From NCBI GenBank assembly GCA_024228555.1, contig JAAETI010000377.1, positions 36,379 through 100,378 on the forward strand: a DNA stretch of 64,000 nt. The letters are read 5' to 3'. Origin of the DNA: a bacterium. GTDB taxonomy: Bacteria; Actinomycetota; Acidimicrobiia; Spongiisociales; UBA5794. A program made the position numbers and the translations under genes. A model generated the notes under the pieces. That model was not told where the DNA came from. It did no database searches and saw nothing but the letters and a program-made list of their open reading frames with translations. This document shows positions 12,446 through 47,851 of the stretch, one piece after another. The first letter of the stretch is position 1, and every line of letters begins with the position of its first letter.

Positions 12446-13089
12446 ATGCCCCAAACCAGAAGTCATCTGCGTCGGCGACCCAATGTGCTCATGGTGTTGG
12501 GGTATTGCGCAGGCCATACATCGGATCGCTGATCGTGACGATGTTGAACTCAGGGTGATCGTTGGCGGACTCCGACCGGGACCGAACGCACAACCTCTTG
12601 ACGATCAGCTGAGACAGCAATTGGCCCGTCACTGGGACAAAGTCGCAAGCGTTTCGGGCCAGCCGTTCGACAAGGCAGCTCTGGAGCGCCCCGCTTGGGT
12701 GTATGACACAGAGCTCACCGCCAACGCGGTGACCACGATGCGCCGCCTGTCACCCTTCGATACGGTGACCCGCTTCACTCACTTGCAGACGTCGTTCTAT
12801 GCGGACACTGTCGACATCACCGATCAATACACAGGCTTGATTGCAGGATATGACGTCGATCCCGGACGGTTCATGGCCGAGCTGGAATCCGACGAGGCCA
12901 AGACTTTCGCTTGGTAGGAGTTCGCTGAGGCCCGCGAACTCGGGGTTGCCGGCCCCCACGGTCCTGCTCCGGATCGATGACAAGGTCCCTGTTCTGGCCA
13001 GCACTTGCTCGATTGAGGGGATCTGCCGACCGGCAACAGAATCCTCAAGCCTCCCCATTCACTTTCCGATTCGATTCAGGTGCAAGTAA
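12446..13089 (+). pseudogene. DsbA/FrnE-like thiol-disulfide oxidoreductase, disrupted (two homopolymer frameshifts and an in-frame TAG)
   Basis: ATG at 12446 followed by CCCC. With CCC it would read MPKPEVICVGDPMCSWCWG, a canonical DsbA N-terminus with CxxC. In-frame TAG at 12915. The conserved C-terminus (EFAEARELGVAG | PTVLLRIDDKVPVLAS) is split across frames at the C-run near 12950. Confidence 0.55.
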
Positions 13090-13124
13090 CGTACTGGTAA
13101 TCGCTGACAGGAGGGTGCGTTAAC

Positions 13125-14528
13125 GTGGCTCGGAGACGTTCACGGCGGCGCAAGAGTTCATATTCAGAGAGCGACGAGCAGACTTCGTCTGACATTGCGG
13201 CAGACGAGCTGTCACCGCGAGCCCGCAGGCTCGTCGAGAGCGGTGTGATTGACCTCGAAACCATTTCCGGCTCCGGCCCCGACGGCAGCGTCACCAGCGG
13301 TGACATCTTGCACGCTGCTCGCGTGATGGAGATGGAGCAATCTGTTCCCAGAATTGAGCGCACCAGCCAAGCCGTCTCTGGGCACGGGGAATCTGATGAC
13401 CCGGCAGCGGACGATGATCTCGAAGCTGCTGCACCCGCAGAGTCAGGAAGCCTTGTCGATGTCCCGGAACTAGTCACTCCAAGTGCCGATTCTGGAACAT
13501 CTACGACTGCACAGGTCGGTGGCGAGCCGATCACGGTGGCCCTCGATCCATGGGACGACTACAACGGATCGTCAGAGGGTCTCTCGGAGGGTGCTCTTCC
13601 CGGTGCCGAGCAATCCTGGGGCGAGGCCGAGGCCAACATCGCCGCGATCGCCGACGAAGCGGCCGCCAACGATGGTGAATCTGATGACGCGGATGCAGAT
13701 GAATCCGCAGAGGAGACAGCCTATGTTGATGCAGATCGGCCGGAGCAGCCTGCGGCGGTCACCTCCGATGAGGCAGTTGATGGCGAGCCCGTGGAAATTG
13801 TGGCTGAGCCACCCGTGGAGCCCGAACCAGCCGCAGTAGACGGGACTCCATTGATCGACTCTGTCCCCGAGGCCGGCGAGGGTGGCGCGGACGAGGCATC
13901 AGATAGGTCAATTGCCGATCTCGTTGCTGCCGCCAATGAGGCCATCGCAACGACATCCACACCCGAAATACCGTCACCCGAGGTATCCATCCCCGAGGGC
14001 GGTACAACACGACACGAAAGCGACGTCGCATCCCCAGTGGTTGCCGAATCGCAGGGAGAGGTAATGATGGACTTCGGTACTCTCGAACTGGTTGATCCGG
14101 ACAGTGTATGGGCTGAGGGTGTCGAGGACTTTGCTCCTTGGTTCCTGGCACATTCAGAGCAATTGGGTGACGTTCTCGGTTTCGATGCCGGGCTTTCTGA
14201 CGCCCGCCAATTCACGACGAAGAGCGCAACCGGTGTGCTGGGTCGCGACGACGGCGGCGAAGACGTGGTCGTCGTTTCCTCAAAGAACGCTACTGCCGAC
14301 GACTCCGATCTGGGTCGGGCACTGGGTATGGCAGCTTCCTCAGGAGCCGGCTCAGTCGCCTTGGTTTCTGCCGCCCTCAATGAGGATCAGTTGAAGGCTC
14401 TTGCCTGGCTGAACAACCAGACCAGGAGCGGGGTCAAGTGGTACGGTATCGAGATGCAGGTCGTCAGGATTGCAGACTCACCGGCAGCAATGATGTTCAA
14501 GCTGGTGGCGTCGCCACCGCAGGACTGA
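13125..14528 (+). CDS. Hypothetical acidic protein: N-terminal E3-binding (peripheral-subunit-binding)-like domain, a long D/E/A-rich linker, and a C-terminal degenerate PD-(D/E)xK / NucS(DUF91)-like domain
   Basis: LSPRARRLVESGVIDLETISGSGPDGSVTSGDILHAA resembles PSBD. C-terminal GVLGRDDGGEDVVVVSSK...LGRALGMAAS...VKWYGIEMQVV resembles NucS-like endonuclease fold motifs, with E replaced by S in the ExK position. Confidence 0.45.
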   Translation: MARRRSRRRKSSYSESDEQTSSDIAADELSPRARRLVESGVIDLETISGSGPDGSVTSGDILHAARVMEMEQSVPRIERTSQAVSGHGESDDPAADDDLEAAAPAESGSLVDVPELVTPSADSGTSTTAQVGGEPITVALDPWDDYNGSSEGLSEGALPGAEQSWGEAEANIAAIADEAAANDGESDDADADESAEETAYVDADRPEQPAAVTSDEAVDGEPVEIVAEPPVEPEPAAVDGTPLIDSVPEAGEGGADEASDRSIADLVAAANEAIATTSTPEIPSPEVSIPEGGTTRHESDVASPVVAESQGEVMMDFGTLELVDPDSVWAEGVEDFAPWFLAHSEQLGDVLGFDAGLSDARQFTTKSATGVLGRDDGGEDVVVVSSKNATADDSDLGRALGMAASSGAGSVALVSAALNEDQLKALAWLNNQTRSGVKWYGIEMQVVRIADSPAAMMFKLVASPPQD

Positions 14529-14556: not shown

Positions 14557-15240
14557 TTAGACGATCTTGCGGTCCTCATCATCGGCAGACTTGGATCGGA
14601 GATCTGACATCTGAGACAGCACGCTGGTCGCACCTTCGCCGATGCGAGGTAGCTTGCGTCCACCCCGCTTGGCGTAGATGCTGGCGCCGACGTCGGAGTC
14701 GGCGGACACACGCTGCGCGTCTTCGCGGAGTTGCTTGGCTTCAGCTTCAGCCTCAGCACGAAGGCGTTCGGCTTCGCTCATGGCTTTTTGTGTCTCAGAT
14801 TGGGCAATCTCGTGTGACTCGGCCTTTTCGCCTTCGGCCATTCCCAGGAGCCGCATCGCTTCCTCTCGGATTTGGCGGGCCTCATTGTCAGCCTGTGCGA
14901 TGATCTGAGCCGCATCCGCCTGGGCGTTGGCAATCAGACCGGGAGCATCGGTTGTGATGATCTCTGGCGGTGGGGCGGGTGCAAGGGCTGGAGGAGCTGC
15001 GACCGCGGATTCTGCCGCCAGCTGCTCGGCCTCGAGCAGCTTTGCCCAGCGTGCCGCCATCTCTTCTTCACGAGAGGCGATGCGCTTGACCCGTGCCCTG
15101 GCATCCTCGAGCTCATGCACGGCCTCCGCACGGACTTTCTTGGCAAGTTCACGCGCCGATTTCAGCTGCGAAGCAGCTTCAACCCTCATCGCGTGAGCGG
15201 ATTTCTGGATTTCGGTGTCGCTCTCGGCTTCGACGTTCAT
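14557..15240 (-). CDS. Coiled-coil protein, Ala/Glu/Arg/Gln-rich (ATP-synthase-b-like / DivIVA-like heptads)
   Basis: Long heptad stretches (AEAEAEAKQLREDAQ, QIIAQADNEARQIREEAMRLL); no enzymatic motifs. Confidence 0.45.
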   Translation of the reverse strand: MNVEAESDTEIQKSAHAMRVEAASQLKSARELAKKVRAEAVHELEDARARVKRIASREEEMAARWAKLLEAEQLAAESAVAAPPALAPAPPPEIITTDAPGLIANAQADAAQIIAQADNEARQIREEAMRLLGMAEGEKAESHEIAQSETQKAMSEAERLRAEAEAEAKQLREDAQRVSADSDVGASIYAKRGGRKLPRIGEGATSVLSQMSDLRSKSADDEDRKIV

Positions 15241-15375: not shown

Positions 15376-16215
15376 CTAGAGGACGGCGAGAAGCGTCATT
15401 AGGAGCACGAGCATGGCAAAACCGGATATTGCGCGCATCTGGCGAGCGTTACTGCGTCCGGCGGCCGTCCGCTCCCACAAGAAGGCGACGACTGCACCGG
15501 TGACTAAACCACCGAGATGTGCCCGCCAGTCGATGTTCGGCATAAACAGGGGTAGCGCCATGTTGATGAGCAGAATCCCACCAAGCTGGTTGAACATCGC
15601 GCTGCCCGCAGCCGATCCACGTTGCCGATAAGCCGCATACATCCAGGCGCCGAATAGGCCGAACAAGGCGCCGGATGCACCGATGCTGAAGGTATTGGCT
15701 GGGCCAAACAAATACGTTGCCAGACTTCCTCCGGCGGCGCTTGCCAGGTAGATCCCCGAGAACGCCACCGAACCCACCTGGCGTTCGAGCCGCGGCCCAA
15801 AGATGTATAGGAAATACATGTTGAACAACAGGTGCATGAAGCCGCCGTGGAGGAACGCCGCGGTCAGTCCTCGCCACCACTCGCCATCCTCGATAGCCGA
15901 ACTGAGCGCCCCGTAGTTGACGATCAAGTCATGCTCGAGCTCGCTCGAACTCAACCCAATCAGGAAGATCACCACGTTGATCGCGATCAACGAGAATACA
16001 ACGGGGCTGGTCTGGAACGATGGCCCGGAGACGATAGAGCGCGCACTTACGACCCTCTGGCCACCCGCAGCGCGGATGCATTCAGGGCACTTCTGGCCTA
16101 CCGGCGCATCATGAGAACACTCCGGGCAGATCGGACGGCCGCACTCGCTGCAGGCAAGATACGTGACGCGGTCGGAGTGTCGATAACAGACAGGTGTTGT
16201 TGTGGGCTCGCTCAT
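15376..16215 (-). CDS. Rhomboid-family intramembrane serine protease with an N-terminal zinc-ribbon
   Basis: CYRHSDRVTYLACSECGRPICPECSH (4-Cys ribbon); rhomboid motifs GASGALFGLFGA (Ser in GxSG) and the conserved His in HLGGLVTG. Confidence 0.8.
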   Translation of the reverse strand: MSEPTTTPVCYRHSDRVTYLACSECGRPICPECSHDAPVGQKCPECIRAAGGQRVVSARSIVSGPSFQTSPVVFSLIAINVVIFLIGLSSSELEHDLIVNYGALSSAIEDGEWWRGLTAAFLHGGFMHLLFNMYFLYIFGPRLERQVGSVAFSGIYLASAAGGSLATYLFGPANTFSIGASGALFGLFGAWMYAAYRQRGSAAGSAMFNQLGGILLINMALPLFMPNIDWRAHLGGLVTGAVVAFLWERTAAGRSNARQMRAISGFAMLVLLMTLLAVL

Positions 16216-16316
16216 GAGGGATATAACCTACTTCATAGGGTCGTCTAGTCCCGAAGCGAGATGACCCACCTGCAGTCGATATCGCCGAGCATTCGACACT
16301 AGAAGTGGAGATCAGA

Positions 16317-16778
16317 ATGAGTGATGACGCTCACGAGCCGCAGACTCACCGTCAACTCGCGGTCAGTCTCTTCAATCGAACCTGGGAGCTACTCGACAAG
16401 GAGGTGCGCACCGAAGCGGAGCAGGCCGAGATGCTCACGGCGGCGTTTGCCTCTCGCTATCACTGGCTGCAGATCGGTGAGCCAAGGAACTTCTCCGTCA
16501 GTGACTGGCAAGTATCCCGGGTCGCCGCAGTTCTTGGATACCCCGAACTGGCCGTTGAGTACGGCAAGAGGTCGTTGCATGTTGCCTCCCTTGCTGGACT
16601 CGCTCCGTTCTATGTTGGGTACGCCCACGAGGCGCTTGCCCGTGCGGCGCGGCTTGCGGGGAATCGGGACGATGTGAAGAACCACCTCGAGGCCGCCACC
16701 GACATGCTCGGTCTGGTTGAGGATGCCGGCGAGCGGGAGCTGCTAGCGGGCGACCTCTCCGAGATAGGTGGCTCGTGA
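16317..16778 (+). CDS. Hypothetical protein, translationally coupled to the trHb gene
   Basis: GGAG SD 6 nt before ATG at 16317. Its stop TGA overlaps the GTG start of the globin (GTGA). Confidence 0.5.
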   Translation: MSDDAHEPQTHRQLAVSLFNRTWELLDKEVRTEAEQAEMLTAAFASRYHWLQIGEPRNFSVSDWQVSRVAAVLGYPELAVEYGKRSLHVASLAGLAPFYVGYAHEALARAARLAGNRDDVKNHLEAATDMLGLVEDAGERELLAGDLSEIGGS

Positions 16779-17203
16779 CGATGTTTCCCAACCGTGCGTC
16801 CGAGAACGCACACCCATGGGGTGACCAGGTCACCCCCTACGAGGAACTCGGCGGTGAACCCGTTCTCCATGAATTGGTCGAGCGCTTCTATGACCTCATG
16901 GACGAGACCTCCCCTGGGCTGCGCGCCATGCATCCTGCCGACGACAGCAACTCGCGGCGCAACCTCTTCGAGTTCCTCAGCGGTTGGATAGGCGGTCCCA
17001 ACCTCTACATGGAGCGCAAGGGCCATCCGATGCTCCGGATGCGGCACGCCCCCTTCGCCATCGGTAGCGAGGAAGCTGTCGAGTGGATGCGGTGTATGCG
17101 TGGTGCTCTCGACGATGTTGGCGTCGCCCAACCGCTTCGGGGCTACCTCGAAACCCGTCTCGACCAGACCGCCCATCATGTGCGCAACACCGACCTCGGT
17201 TAG
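16775..17203 (+). CDS. glbO: Group II truncated hemoglobin (trHbO/GlbO-like)
   Basis: FYDLMDETSPGLRAMHP...GGPNLYMERKGHPMLRMRHAPFAIGSEEAVEWMRCM closely matches the trHbO signature, including RGHPxLRMRHxPF. Confidence 0.75.
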   Translation: MTMFPNRASENAHPWGDQVTPYEELGGEPVLHELVERFYDLMDETSPGLRAMHPADDSNSRRNLFEFLSGWIGGPNLYMERKGHPMLRMRHAPFAIGSEEAVEWMRCMRGALDDVGVAQPLRGYLETRLDQTAHHVRNTDLG

Positions 17204-20114: not shown

Positions 20115-21269
20115 GTGGTGAAGCGGGTTTATGTGATGCTGGGGGTTTTGGGGCTCGTCCTAGGAGCTTGTGGGGGCACGAGTACAGACACGACGGTTGC
20201 GGCGACCGCACAGGACAGCCAAGACACCGCGGTCACGACGTCCACAGCAGCCGGCGATAGCAGCGGAGTTGACCTCGGCGAGGATGGCGAGCTCACCCTC
20301 GAGGACTTTATCCCGGGTTTCAACACTGACTTCGAAGAGATCGATTGGCGTGCTCAGGAGTTGGAGATTCAGCAAGCGGTCTCCGTTTGCATGGCAGCCG
20401 AAGGCTTCGAATATGTTCCATTTGTCCCCTCAGATGTCGGTGGCGGGTTCATCGAGGAGGAGTGGGACGAAGAGACGTACGTCAAGGAGTACGGGTTCGG
20501 TGTCGCCAGCTGGATAACCGACGAGAGAAACTTCGGCATCAGCGAAGAAGGTGACGACTTCGAAGACCCCTACGCCAATGATCCAAACCAGGCGATCGTC
20601 GAAGCGATGGACGAGTCTGAGCGTGAGGAATACTTCCGGGTCCTTCACGGCAGCGAGCCGGACATCATCGAGGAGACGCCCTGGGAAGAGATCGAAGCAA
20701 TGACCCAGGAGGAGCAAGAGGCATTCTGGGATGAGGCGTACGCCGATTGGGAACCAGACGGTTGTTTCAACGAGGCCTACGACGTCGCGTACAGCCAGGA
20801 ATCAGCCGAGGCCTTCTATGAGGAATTCAGCGACGATCTAGATGCTATCTACGAGCAAGTTGAGTCCGACCTGCGCATCATGGCGGCTCAGGCCGAGTGG
20901 TCGAGCTGCATGGCCGACAAGGGCCACACCTATGCCACCCAGGAAGAGATGTATGAGTACTTCTGGGGGGACGAGTTCGACGAGAGCGAGTTCTCCAAGC
21001 AGGTGAACGAGTTGATCACCTGGCCCGAGTACGACCCAACAGTCGAACTCACCGAGGAAGAGGAGAACGACCCTTCCCTGTGGATGCCGCAGTACGACAT
21101 CGAGCTACTGCAGCCGTACATCGACGAGGAGATCGCCGTAGCTACCGCTAACTATGAGTGCTCCGAGGACTCGTTCGAACTGTGGGAAGAGGTCTACAAC
21201 GATTTGCAGCAGGACTTCCTCGACGAGAACATGGATCGATTGCTCGCTTTCCTCGAGGCTAACTCATAG
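20115..21269 (+). CDS. Highly acidic, Trp/Tyr/Phe-rich lipoprotein (hypothetical)
   Basis: Signal and lipobox LVLGACGG. Body is >30% D+E with recurring aromatic-acidic patterns (FWDEAYADWEP, YEYFWGDEFDESEF, FELWEEVYNDL). Confidence 0.5.
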   Translation: MVKRVYVMLGVLGLVLGACGGTSTDTTVAATAQDSQDTAVTTSTAAGDSSGVDLGEDGELTLEDFIPGFNTDFEEIDWRAQELEIQQAVSVCMAAEGFEYVPFVPSDVGGGFIEEEWDEETYVKEYGFGVASWITDERNFGISEEGDDFEDPYANDPNQAIVEAMDESEREEYFRVLHGSEPDIIEETPWEEIEAMTQEEQEAFWDEAYADWEPDGCFNEAYDVAYSQESAEAFYEEFSDDLDAIYEQVESDLRIMAAQAEWSSCMADKGHTYATQEEMYEYFWGDEFDESEFSKQVNELITWPEYDPTVELTEEEENDPSLWMPQYDIELLQPYIDEEIAVATANYECSEDSFELWEEVYNDLQQDFLDENMDRLLAFLEANS

Positions 21270-46252: not shown

Positions 46253-47851
46253 CTAGTTGCCCAACCGTGCGTAGGTGGCCGTCATGGCGCCATCAGTGAT
46301 GGTGCGGGTGTCGTCGGTGTTGACGTTGAGGGTGACGATACGACCGTCCGGCTGAGGGCACAGCAGTCGCCCATCATGGAACTCGGTGTGACCACAGGGC
46401 TCGCCGATCTGATGACCGTCGTCGGGTATTGCAACCTCCCGCTCGTAGCTATCGATGGTCTCCCCGCTCAAGGGGTCAAGCAGCTCGGTGGCGATGTATT
46501 GGAAGTAGGGGTCGGAACCGGCATCGGGCTGCAAGAGACGGAACGTATCGATGCGGATGAGGTCCTGGCCGTCCAGATGGACCATTGCATCAGGAACGAC
46601 CATACGAGTCCAGAGCTCAGCGCCGTCGAGGTCGCGGGCCTCTATCGAGTCCGATGCTGTGCGGAGTGTCACATACGCGGCACCCAGTCGTCCCGAGGAC
46701 GCTTGTGGGCCGACGACCACCCGGTCGCCGCTGTCGAGATCCAGCGTGGCTGATCCGTCGGGCCCGCTGACAAGTGCCAGACTCCGGTCATCCACGATTC
46801 CGACGTCCAAGATGTCTTCCCCATTTTGCAGCGGAACCTCGGTGCCATCCACCAAGACCCGGTCTGGCTGATTGGTGGTCTGAGTGATGAACCTGCCGTC
46901 GACGTAGAAGGCCCGAGCAGTCGGTTCTGTGGAAATGACTTGAGAGGTGCCGTTGGCATCGTGGAGCACCACCCCATCGGGTCCGGCGCTAACTATCCAG
47001 GGCGCACTGGGTGGCCGCACTTTGAGCGTGAAGCAAAATGGGTCCGGTTCCCAGAACGGAGAACACAGGGCGTAGTCGCCATCTGAGATGATGTCGGGGA
47101 TCAGGACTGTGTCCGGGCCGGGCCCGGTGACGACAACTGCCGGATCCACGGTGGCCTCATGCCAGGGCTGCCACGATGCTGGGGAAGTGTCCGTTTGGGC
47201 GGTGAGCAGGTGCGAAGCGAACCGTCCCAGGCCGTCCGGCCATCCAACGATGAGGTACTGATTGGTGCGCTGCCGCCCCTCGGGTACCTCAAACGACAAC
47301 AGCTGCCCGGCTGCTGCGAGTGGCAACTCGCCGAGATCCTCTGGTGATTGCGGTCTGGTGAACACGAGCTCGGTATTGTCGCCGCCAAGCACGAGATCGG
47401 GAGACTCGGATTCGATCCGGTAGAGCCTGAGGAACGCCTCGTCGAACAGGATGGATGTCTCTGACAATGTCCCACAGCCGATGGCGGTTACCACCGGTTC
47501 ACCGACGTTGAACGCACCCTCACCCGTCTCGAGTTCGGCGTAGGCGCGGTTGCAGTTCATTGGGTAGTCGATGCGCCCCGGAGTGATCACCATCACAAAC
47601 CCGCCGGTCGTGGCATCGGCGAACTGGTTGCCATCGAGCGTCCCGGACACGAGCCGCCAATTGCCGTTGATACCTGACGTATCGGCGACGGTACTGGTCA
47701 CGCCGGTGTTTGGCGGCGATGAGGTCTCGGGAGGCGCCACCACTCCGGCCGGCTCGTCGGTTGAACCACGCAAAGCGAGCAGAACTCCGCCAACGAGTAC
47801 GAGTACCGCGGCAAAGGTGACGGCTCCGATGAGGGCAGGGCGACGGCTCAT
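46253..47851 (-). CDS. Membrane-anchored protein with a META/HslJ-like (DUF306) domain and a large beta-rich C-terminal domain
   Basis: N-terminal TM. NGNWRLVSGTLDG...MNCNRAYAELETGEG...TAIGCGTL resembles the META domain pattern (GCN..y......T.maC). Confidence 0.45.
   Translation of the reverse strand: MSRRPALIGAVTFAAVLVLVGGVLLALRGSTDEPAGVVAPPETSSPPNTGVTSTVADTSGINGNWRLVSGTLDGNQFADATTGGFVMVITPGRIDYPMNCNRAYAELETGEGAFNVGEPVVTAIGCGTLSETSILFDEAFLRLYRIESESPDLVLGGDNTELVFTRPQSPEDLGELPLAAAGQLLSFEVPEGRQRTNQYLIVGWPDGLGRFASHLLTAQTDTSPASWQPWHEATVDPAVVVTGPGPDTVLIPDIISDGDYALCSPFWEPDPFCFTLKVRPPSAPWIVSAGPDGVVLHDANGTSQVISTEPTARAFYVDGRFITQTTNQPDRVLVDGTEVPLQNGEDILDVGIVDDRSLALVSGPDGSATLDLDSGDRVVVGPQASSGRLGAAYVTLRTASDSIEARDLDGAELWTRMVVPDAMVHLDGQDLIRIDTFRLLQPDAGSDPYFQYIATELLDPLSGETIDSYEREVAIPDDGHQIGEPCGHTEFHDGRLLCPQPDGRIVTLNVNTDDTRTITDGAMTATYARLGN

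Follow-up and report, generated by a model that had tools for sequence, protein, structure and literature searches.

A conserved PSBD protein of uncultured Acidimicrobiia with a degenerate NucS-like domain as a candidate modular tether

A 64,000-nucleotide stretch of DNA from the Acidimicrobiia (the window) carries a gene whose product joins a peripheral-subunit-binding domain (PSBD) to a degenerate NucS-like domain of the PD-(D/E)xK superfamily. The protein is cytoplasmic, stably kept, and vertically inherited, without signal peptide or membrane segment. Nuclease activity is very unlikely because all residues of the predicted catalytic motifs are replaced. We tentatively favor a role as a non-enzymatic modular tether or adaptor.

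The G+C content of the window is ca. 60%, and its gene content is that of an ordinary chromosome (amino-acid ABC transporter, PLP enzyme, rhomboid, truncated globin, purA/purD/purB, clpB, and dnaK). The encoded protein is a 100% match to P0001, a hypothetical protein (GY926_11145) of a marine metagenome-assembled genome (MAG) labeled 'bacterium'; the source databases label the family 'hypothetical' or 'E3 binding domain-containing protein'. The translation includes, letter for letter, every string cited in the first-pass annotation. The protein has a net charge of -69 and a pI of ca. 4, and 20% of its residues are Asp or Glu. A promoter and terminator scan of the gene region returned nothing beyond expectation. 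The features of the gene, with the module boundaries used throughout, are as follows.

13110..13114 (+), Shine-Dalgarno sequence GGAGG, 10 nt 5' of the GTG start, read directly from the sequence.
13125..14528 (+), whole CDS, 467 aa plus stop, with a GTG start; the only long ORF there.
13125..13163 (+), basic N-terminal peptide MARRRSRRRKSSY, residues 1-13; net charge +7; R3-R5 at least 90% conserved in the 25-sequence alignment.
13206..13358 (+), PSBD, residues 28-78 (Pfam match 30-62), with a conserved C-terminal helix extension ...HAARVMEMEQSVxRIE.
13359..13505 (+), acidic linker 1, residues 79-127, variable in length and sequence; pLDDT < 50; dN 0.41-0.94.
13506..13670 (+), central module, residues 128-182 (ca. 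55 aa), PWDxYNG..GLSE..LPGAEQSWGEAEANIAAIAEEAAA, with a predicted long helix at 155-182.
13671..14057 (+), acidic linker 2, residues 183-311, variable; 27% Asp plus Glu, net charge -32.
14058..14525 (+), C-terminal NucS-like PD-(D/E)xK domain, degenerate, residues 312-467, homologous to the DUF4268/PDC-S11 N-terminal domain.
14205..14285 (+), former active-site positions: Arg361 (was Glu), Gly370 (was Asp), and Ser385-Ser386-Lys387 (was Glu-Asn-Gln/Lys).

Homologs of the protein formed 70 clusters with lengths from 339 to 560 aa and constant modules. This range arises because the linkers grow and shrink. In the alignment of 25 of these clusters (A1), four conserved modules are separated by two hypervariable acidic spacers rich in Ala, Pro, Glu, and Asp. 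The first-pass annotation had described a single acidic linker of ca. 250 aa; its acidic and disordered character stood, but there are two linkers, and they flank the conserved central module. The longer consensus of this module in A1 is PWDxYNGSSEGLSE.ALPGAEQSWGEAEANIAAIAEEAAA, and nine of its positions are invariant in the 25 sequences (G152, G160, A161, S164, W165, G166, E167, A168, and A170). The N-terminal peptide is not a signal peptide because no hydrophobic stretch follows it, and at each locus its motif is present in this gene only. No tandem repeats of note were found in the linkers. Homology searches started from the central motif or from residues 1-80 retrieved no protein, members of the family included, and carry no weight on whether these modules occur in other architectures.

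Structure prediction and substitution rates follow the same division. In the AF2 model built from the family alignment, the PSBD (pLDDT ca. 90) and the C-terminal domain (85-94) are confidently folded, and the linkers stay below 50; the helix at 155-182 is predicted with moderate confidence (pLDDT 53-74). Among the modules, dN was 0.06-0.25 (C-terminal domain, most comparisons), 0.06-0.34 (central motif), and 0.19-0.52 (N-terminus together with PSBD); in the linkers it was 0.41-1.02. Because dS was saturated (> 1), dN was used for ranking only, with no dN/dS. The mean column identity of the C-terminal domain among family members is 81%. Strong purifying selection acts on the modules and not on the linkers.

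A PSBD had been suggested at residues ca. 28-65, and profile and structure both bear this out. Pfam PF02817 (E3_binding) matched residues 30-62 with an E-value of 2.5e-8 (34.4 bits against a gathering score of 23.7), and the same domain is annotated in most of the 70 clusters. Weak matches to the solved PSBDs 1w4i, 1bal, and 1zwv were obtained with phmmer. The model shows the two-helix fold (helices 31-39 and 58-73, pLDDT ca. 90), and the sequence between the helices reads GSGPDGS, where a loop of the form G-[ST]-G-x-x-G is expected. No Biotin_lipoyl match was found at E <= 10, with just 27 residues preceding the PSBD, and the protein gave no Pfam match to the 2-oxoacid_dh (CAT-like) core domain. 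The PSBD therefore stands outside an E2, and the protein cannot be an acyltransferase. To our knowledge, PSBDs are known almost solely within E2 and E3BP chains, acetoin-type hydrolase fusions being another case.

In E2p of E. coli, H327, P330, R333, R337, and R354 are reported to contact E1 and E3 (PMC10849603). We mapped these contacts onto the 57 family members with a recognizable motif. The equivalent of P330 is retained, that of R333 is Arg in 51, Lys in five, and Gln in one, and that of R334 is Arg in all 57. The equivalent of R337 is Glu in 55 and Asp in two, a conserved charge reversal, and that of H327 is Glu or Asp. At R354, 48 of the 57 members have Arg or Lys, and the window protein has Ser. 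The PSBD keeps its fold and, judging from these residues, some but not all of its basic docking face. Since R337 is replaced by Glu, H327 by Glu or Asp, and R354 by Ser in the window protein, the canonical docking surface appears to be retained only in part, and a partner other than E3 or E1 may be bound. The reversal at R337 and the Ser at R354 in particular argue in earnest for a partner or a mode of binding unlike the textbook case.

For the C-terminal domain, there is no model in Pfam or NCBIfam. Three PADLOC PDC-S11 models matched residues 315-464, with an E-value of 8e-27 for PDLC04911 over profile positions 3-154 of 318 (the three models have ca. 315 positions); positions 155-318 stayed unmatched. 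When a profile of the domain was searched against 1.84 billion representatives, 2,476 proteins matched at E <= 1e-3 and 1,200 at E <= 1e-10. About eight of the matches belong to this family; the others are mostly proteins of 300-340 aa that carry the domain at the N-terminus and Pfam DUF4268 in the C-terminal half. DUF4268 (PF14088) is present in the relatives P0074, P0080, P0091, and P0102 and not in the window protein. Pairwise identity between the domain and the DUF4268-type relatives is 30-40% (E ca. 1e-27), and the scaffold motifs W..E..FxPWL, WLN, and FGxE..VxRIxDS.PA are shared. In contrast to these relatives, the window protein has the domain at its C-terminus behind a PSBD. In the phage collection the domain had a single match, a weak one (E = 3e-5, 30% coverage) to BK065154.1, 565-705 (H1), where an Archaeoglobus pleomorphic provirus encodes a DUF4268 protein; archaeal mobile elements thus also carry active-type relatives.

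The predicted structure contains the alpha-beta-beta-beta-alpha-beta core of the PD-(D/E)xK superfamily, and its nearest structural neighbors are NucS (closest), AspBHI, and FokI. A NucS-like fold, as first suggested, thus agrees with the structural neighbors, but the homology is to DUF4268/PDC-S11 domains, and the window protein has no match to Pfam NucS_N or NucS_C. Foldseek against the PDB placed NucS/EndoMS at a probability of 0.97-0.98, but the E-values were weak, and neither the PDB nor BFVD gave a match at E <= 0.001. The family profile matched solved structures only at chance level (PRPP synthetase, E 0.03-0.17), and a broader profile that included active relatives matched no PDB chain. 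Among the C-terminal domains, Pfam gave nothing beyond sub-threshold matches to NucS_C (E 0.0011) and YhcG_C (0.032), each in single active relatives. The link to NucS therefore rests on structure plus motif logic. The likeness to NucS/EndoMS (PDB 2vld and 5gke) is limited to the C-terminal domain and is structural only; identity is 17-19%, and unlike NucS/EndoMS, the window protein has neither the NucS N-terminal domain nor the catalytic D-E-K.

The catalytic columns were compared in a MAFFT alignment with 36 active-type relatives, with counts taken over 66-67 family members. Four conserved elements mark the active-type relatives: the Glu of '..sEhpVG', the Asp of 'fsLDL', the ExQ variant of ExK that reads 'vIENQ', and 'tDHxHLGQllTYA'. 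In the family, the Glu of sEhpVG is Arg in 63 of 66 members, the catalytic Asp is Gly in 67 of 67, and the Glu of ExQ is Ser in 64 of 66 and Ala in the remaining two. The Asn of vIENQ gives way to Ser or Thr, the Gln of HLGQ to Arg or His, and the Tyr of HLGQxxTY to Met (66/66). The Q/K position of ExQ is unconstrained (Q28, K27, R5, E4, H1, A1). In the AF2 model, the second core strand contains Gly370, and the third has Ser385-Lys387 at its end; D and (D/E)xK canonically occupy these sites. A replacement of the ExK Glu by Ser had been noted at the outset and is found at Ser385; the loss is wider, as every motif residue is replaced. The accompanying prediction of a catalytically dead domain is strengthened by the three near-invariant exchanges (E to R, D to G, and E to S). 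The replacements are invariant, and no other part of the protein evolves as slowly as the C-terminal domain, which points to a new selected function and not to decay. The N-terminal domain of RPB5 of RNA polymerase is a non-catalytic PD-(D/E)xK domain that serves as a structural module; it has no detectable sequence relation to the present domain and another partner context.

The gene was found in 11 of 185,579 species-representative genomes, all of them MAGs, which answered the question of phyletic distribution with a single clade. Their labels are Acidimicrobiia, Acidimicrobiaceae, and 'uncultured bacterium', with one Gemmatimonadales. The locus with the latter label (L014, CAXMRC010000087.1, 'uncultured Gemmatimonadales') shares its gene order with the Acidimicrobiia loci, with 64-81% identity to the genes of the window, and is therefore probably mis-binned. 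The gene is confined to a single, vertically evolving clade within the uncultured Acidimicrobiia. It is single-copy and chromosomal, and the surrounding segment is collinear in all 16 loci. The shared order is ABC transporter, PLP enzyme and/or DsbA-like gene, PSBD gene, coiled-coil gene, rhomboid gene, 157-aa protein gene, globin gene, SLH/beta-helix gene, and amidase gene. The mobile or defence-island setting and the patchy distribution expected of DUF4268/PDC-S11 genes were not found; the gene sits in a housekeeping segment instead.

We considered the neighborhood as a functional clue and rejected it. The coiled-coil and rhomboid genes downstream, whose conservation was to be checked, are indeed conserved, but so is everything else over ca. 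10 kb, and no specific clue results. Both genes lie on the opposite strand, convergent to the PSBD gene, and in two loci (L003 and L004) a tRNA synthetase gene and a beta-lactamase gene sit between the PSBD gene and this pair. The coiled-coil gene (14557-15240, -) encodes a 227-aa protein with no Pfam family and weak NCBIfam similarity to Scy-type coiled coils. The rhomboid protease gene (15376-16215, -) encodes a Cys-rich N-terminal segment resembling a zinc ribbon or B-box. The two genes are adjacent in nearly all related loci despite inserted genes nearby; on the short contig of locus L005, the coiled-coil gene is visible and the rhomboid gene is not. The gene for the 157-aa protein (16305-16778, +), which has no family match, overlaps the Bac_globin gene (16775-17203, +) by 4 nt. 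The conservation of this pair of 157-aa protein and truncated hemoglobin across related loci suggests a two-gene operon. Two further long ORFs, 20115-21269 (+, 384 aa) and 46253-47851 (-, 532 aa), had no Pfam match at E <= 1e-5.

Upstream of the PSBD gene, a DsbA-like gene (Thioredoxin_5-type, CSWCWG; 12453-13089, +) is disrupted in the window. It contains an in-frame TAG at 12915-12917, where the L006 ortholog has Glu, and the frame is lost after 'GVAG' (ca. 12953), with a C-terminal remnant in another frame extending to 13089. Either the gene is a pseudogene or the MAG was misassembled at this point. The DsbA-like region occurs upstream of the PSBD gene in about seven other loci, and the copy checked (L006) is one uninterrupted ORF.

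The first-pass annotation had offered a nucleic-acid mimic or an adaptor as possible functions. Only the latter is retained, as the tether that we tentatively prefer. Its PSBD would serve to dock a dimer, most probably a component of the 2-oxoacid dehydrogenase machinery of the E3 or E1 type. The dead NucS-like domain, with its remodeled and invariant former active site, may be the hub that oligomerizes or binds a second partner, and additional contacts would come from the basic N-terminus and from the central helix. By analogy, this layout would copy the chain logic of E2 and E3BP (docking domain, flexible arm, and core domain). Like these chains, the protein has a PSBD and long, flexible, charged Ala/Pro-rich linkers followed by a folded C-terminal 'core', and its core, like that of E3BP (protein X), is predicted to be catalytically inactive. 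Unlike them, it lacks a lipoyl domain, its C-terminal domain has the PD-(D/E)xK fold and not the CAT-like acyltransferase fold, and it has an Arg-rich N-terminus, the extra conserved central motif, and Glu in place of one of the Arg residues that contact E1 and E3.

How far the tether can be specified is a separate matter. That the PSBD would dock E3 or E1 in particular appears rather doubtful, given its altered contact residues. An accessory, E3BP-like subunit of a 2-oxoacid dehydrogenase, in which the inactivated defence-type nuclease would replace the acyltransferase core, the PSBD would dock E3 or E1, and the central helix would bind a further component, is an unlikely form of the same proposal. 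No E1, E2, or E3 gene was found in the 64-kb window or the fetched flanks. In actinobacteria, E2p is reduced to trimers, and the hybrid PDH-ODH complex, whose higher-order architecture is unresolved, forms polar foci (PMC8740704, PMC10581250). An accessory tether would not be out of place there, which is context and not evidence. As to origin, an E2-derived PSBD-linker fragment was probably fused to an actinobacterial DUF4268-type nuclease, after which DUF4268 and the activity were lost.

The dead domain could instead belong to a DNA-associated factor, recognizing a lesion, a mismatch, or a modified base with help from the Arg-rich N-terminus while the PSBD recruits a protein. We hold this to be a minor possibility. 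The structural neighbors NucS, AspBHI, and FokI are DNA-binding nucleases, the N-terminal peptide carries a net charge of +7, and the DUF4268-containing nucleases MdgA and MdgB, which possibly belong with the DUF4268/PDC-S11 nuclease-domain relatives, act on modified phage DNA (PMC12366544). The acidity of the C-terminal domain (net charge -12) is no argument against DNA binding because the active relatives are equally acidic (-13). However, the Q..Y motif (HLGQxxTY) of the active relatives is also lost (R..M), DUF4268, proposed in the literature as the part that recognizes the substrate, is absent, and the highly negative charge of the whole protein disfavors DNA binding.

PD-(D/E)xK nucleases often act as dimers. 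The dead domain might thus heterodimerize with an active DUF4268-type paralog and modulate it, which we consider improbable. The nearest outgroups, P0073 (520 aa) and P0074 (648 aa), are tandem duplications of a nuclease-like domain plus DUF4268, each with an intact E/D/ExQ motif in copy 1 and a degenerate copy 2 ('IVSQ' for 'IENQ' in P0074). This layout suggests pseudo-heterodimeric DUF4268 nucleases, and with degenerate copies standing beside active ones, a structural or partner role of non-catalytic copies has precedent. Both the dimeric habit of these nucleases and the pairing of an active with a degenerate copy in one chain speak for such a regulator. Nevertheless, no active DUF4268 paralog was found in the window or in any fetched flank, the PSBD and the central motif would be left without explanation, and the context is one of housekeeping genes without a defence island.

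A DNA mimic, in which the poly-acidic region would imitate nucleic acid and inhibit DNA-binding enzymes as an anti-defence factor, is highly improbable. Its extreme acidity and its ancestry in the PADLOC defence-candidate family PDC-S11 would suit such a role. However, the surface of a mimic is expected to be conserved, and the acidic linkers are the least conserved parts in both sequence and length. Relatives of the family were absent from 50,697 phage records, IMG/VR contigs, and BFVD structures, and the single-copy gene is inherited vertically in a collinear chromosomal context, so that the earlier idea of an anti-defence factor is disfavored. A divergent functional E2 or an active PDC-S11 nuclease, to which weak NCBIfam E2 equivalog matches (10-25 bits against cut-offs of ca. 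379-450) and the strong PADLOC match might point, scarcely merits consideration and is refuted, since the E2 models match with nothing but their own linker/PSBD region, no lipoyl or 2-oxoacid_dh domain is present, every residue of the nuclease motifs is substituted, and DUF4268 is missing.

Each of the two domains belongs to a known superfamily (PSBD and the NucS-like, DUF4268-associated PD-(D/E)xK domains). Pfam, NCBIfam, PADLOC, PHROGs, and the searchable literature contain no description of the combination, which the first reading could match to no described protein, of the central motif, or of the fixed inactivation. The distribution of the family is narrow, in uncultured sediment Acidimicrobiia, which limits its reach. 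The family offers a clean example of a defence-type PD-(D/E)xK nuclease domain turned into a strongly conserved, predicted non-catalytic module of a housekeeping gene. A free-standing PSBD on flexible arms with a dead core would show that the design of docking domain and swinging arm has been reused beyond the classical complexes. If the PSBD docks E3 or E1, the protein would bear on the architecture of actinobacterial PDH/ODH assemblies. If it is indeed an E3BP-like subunit, it would represent a third way, besides E2 cores and E3BP, to organize such complexes in a phylum with E2p cores no larger than trimers.
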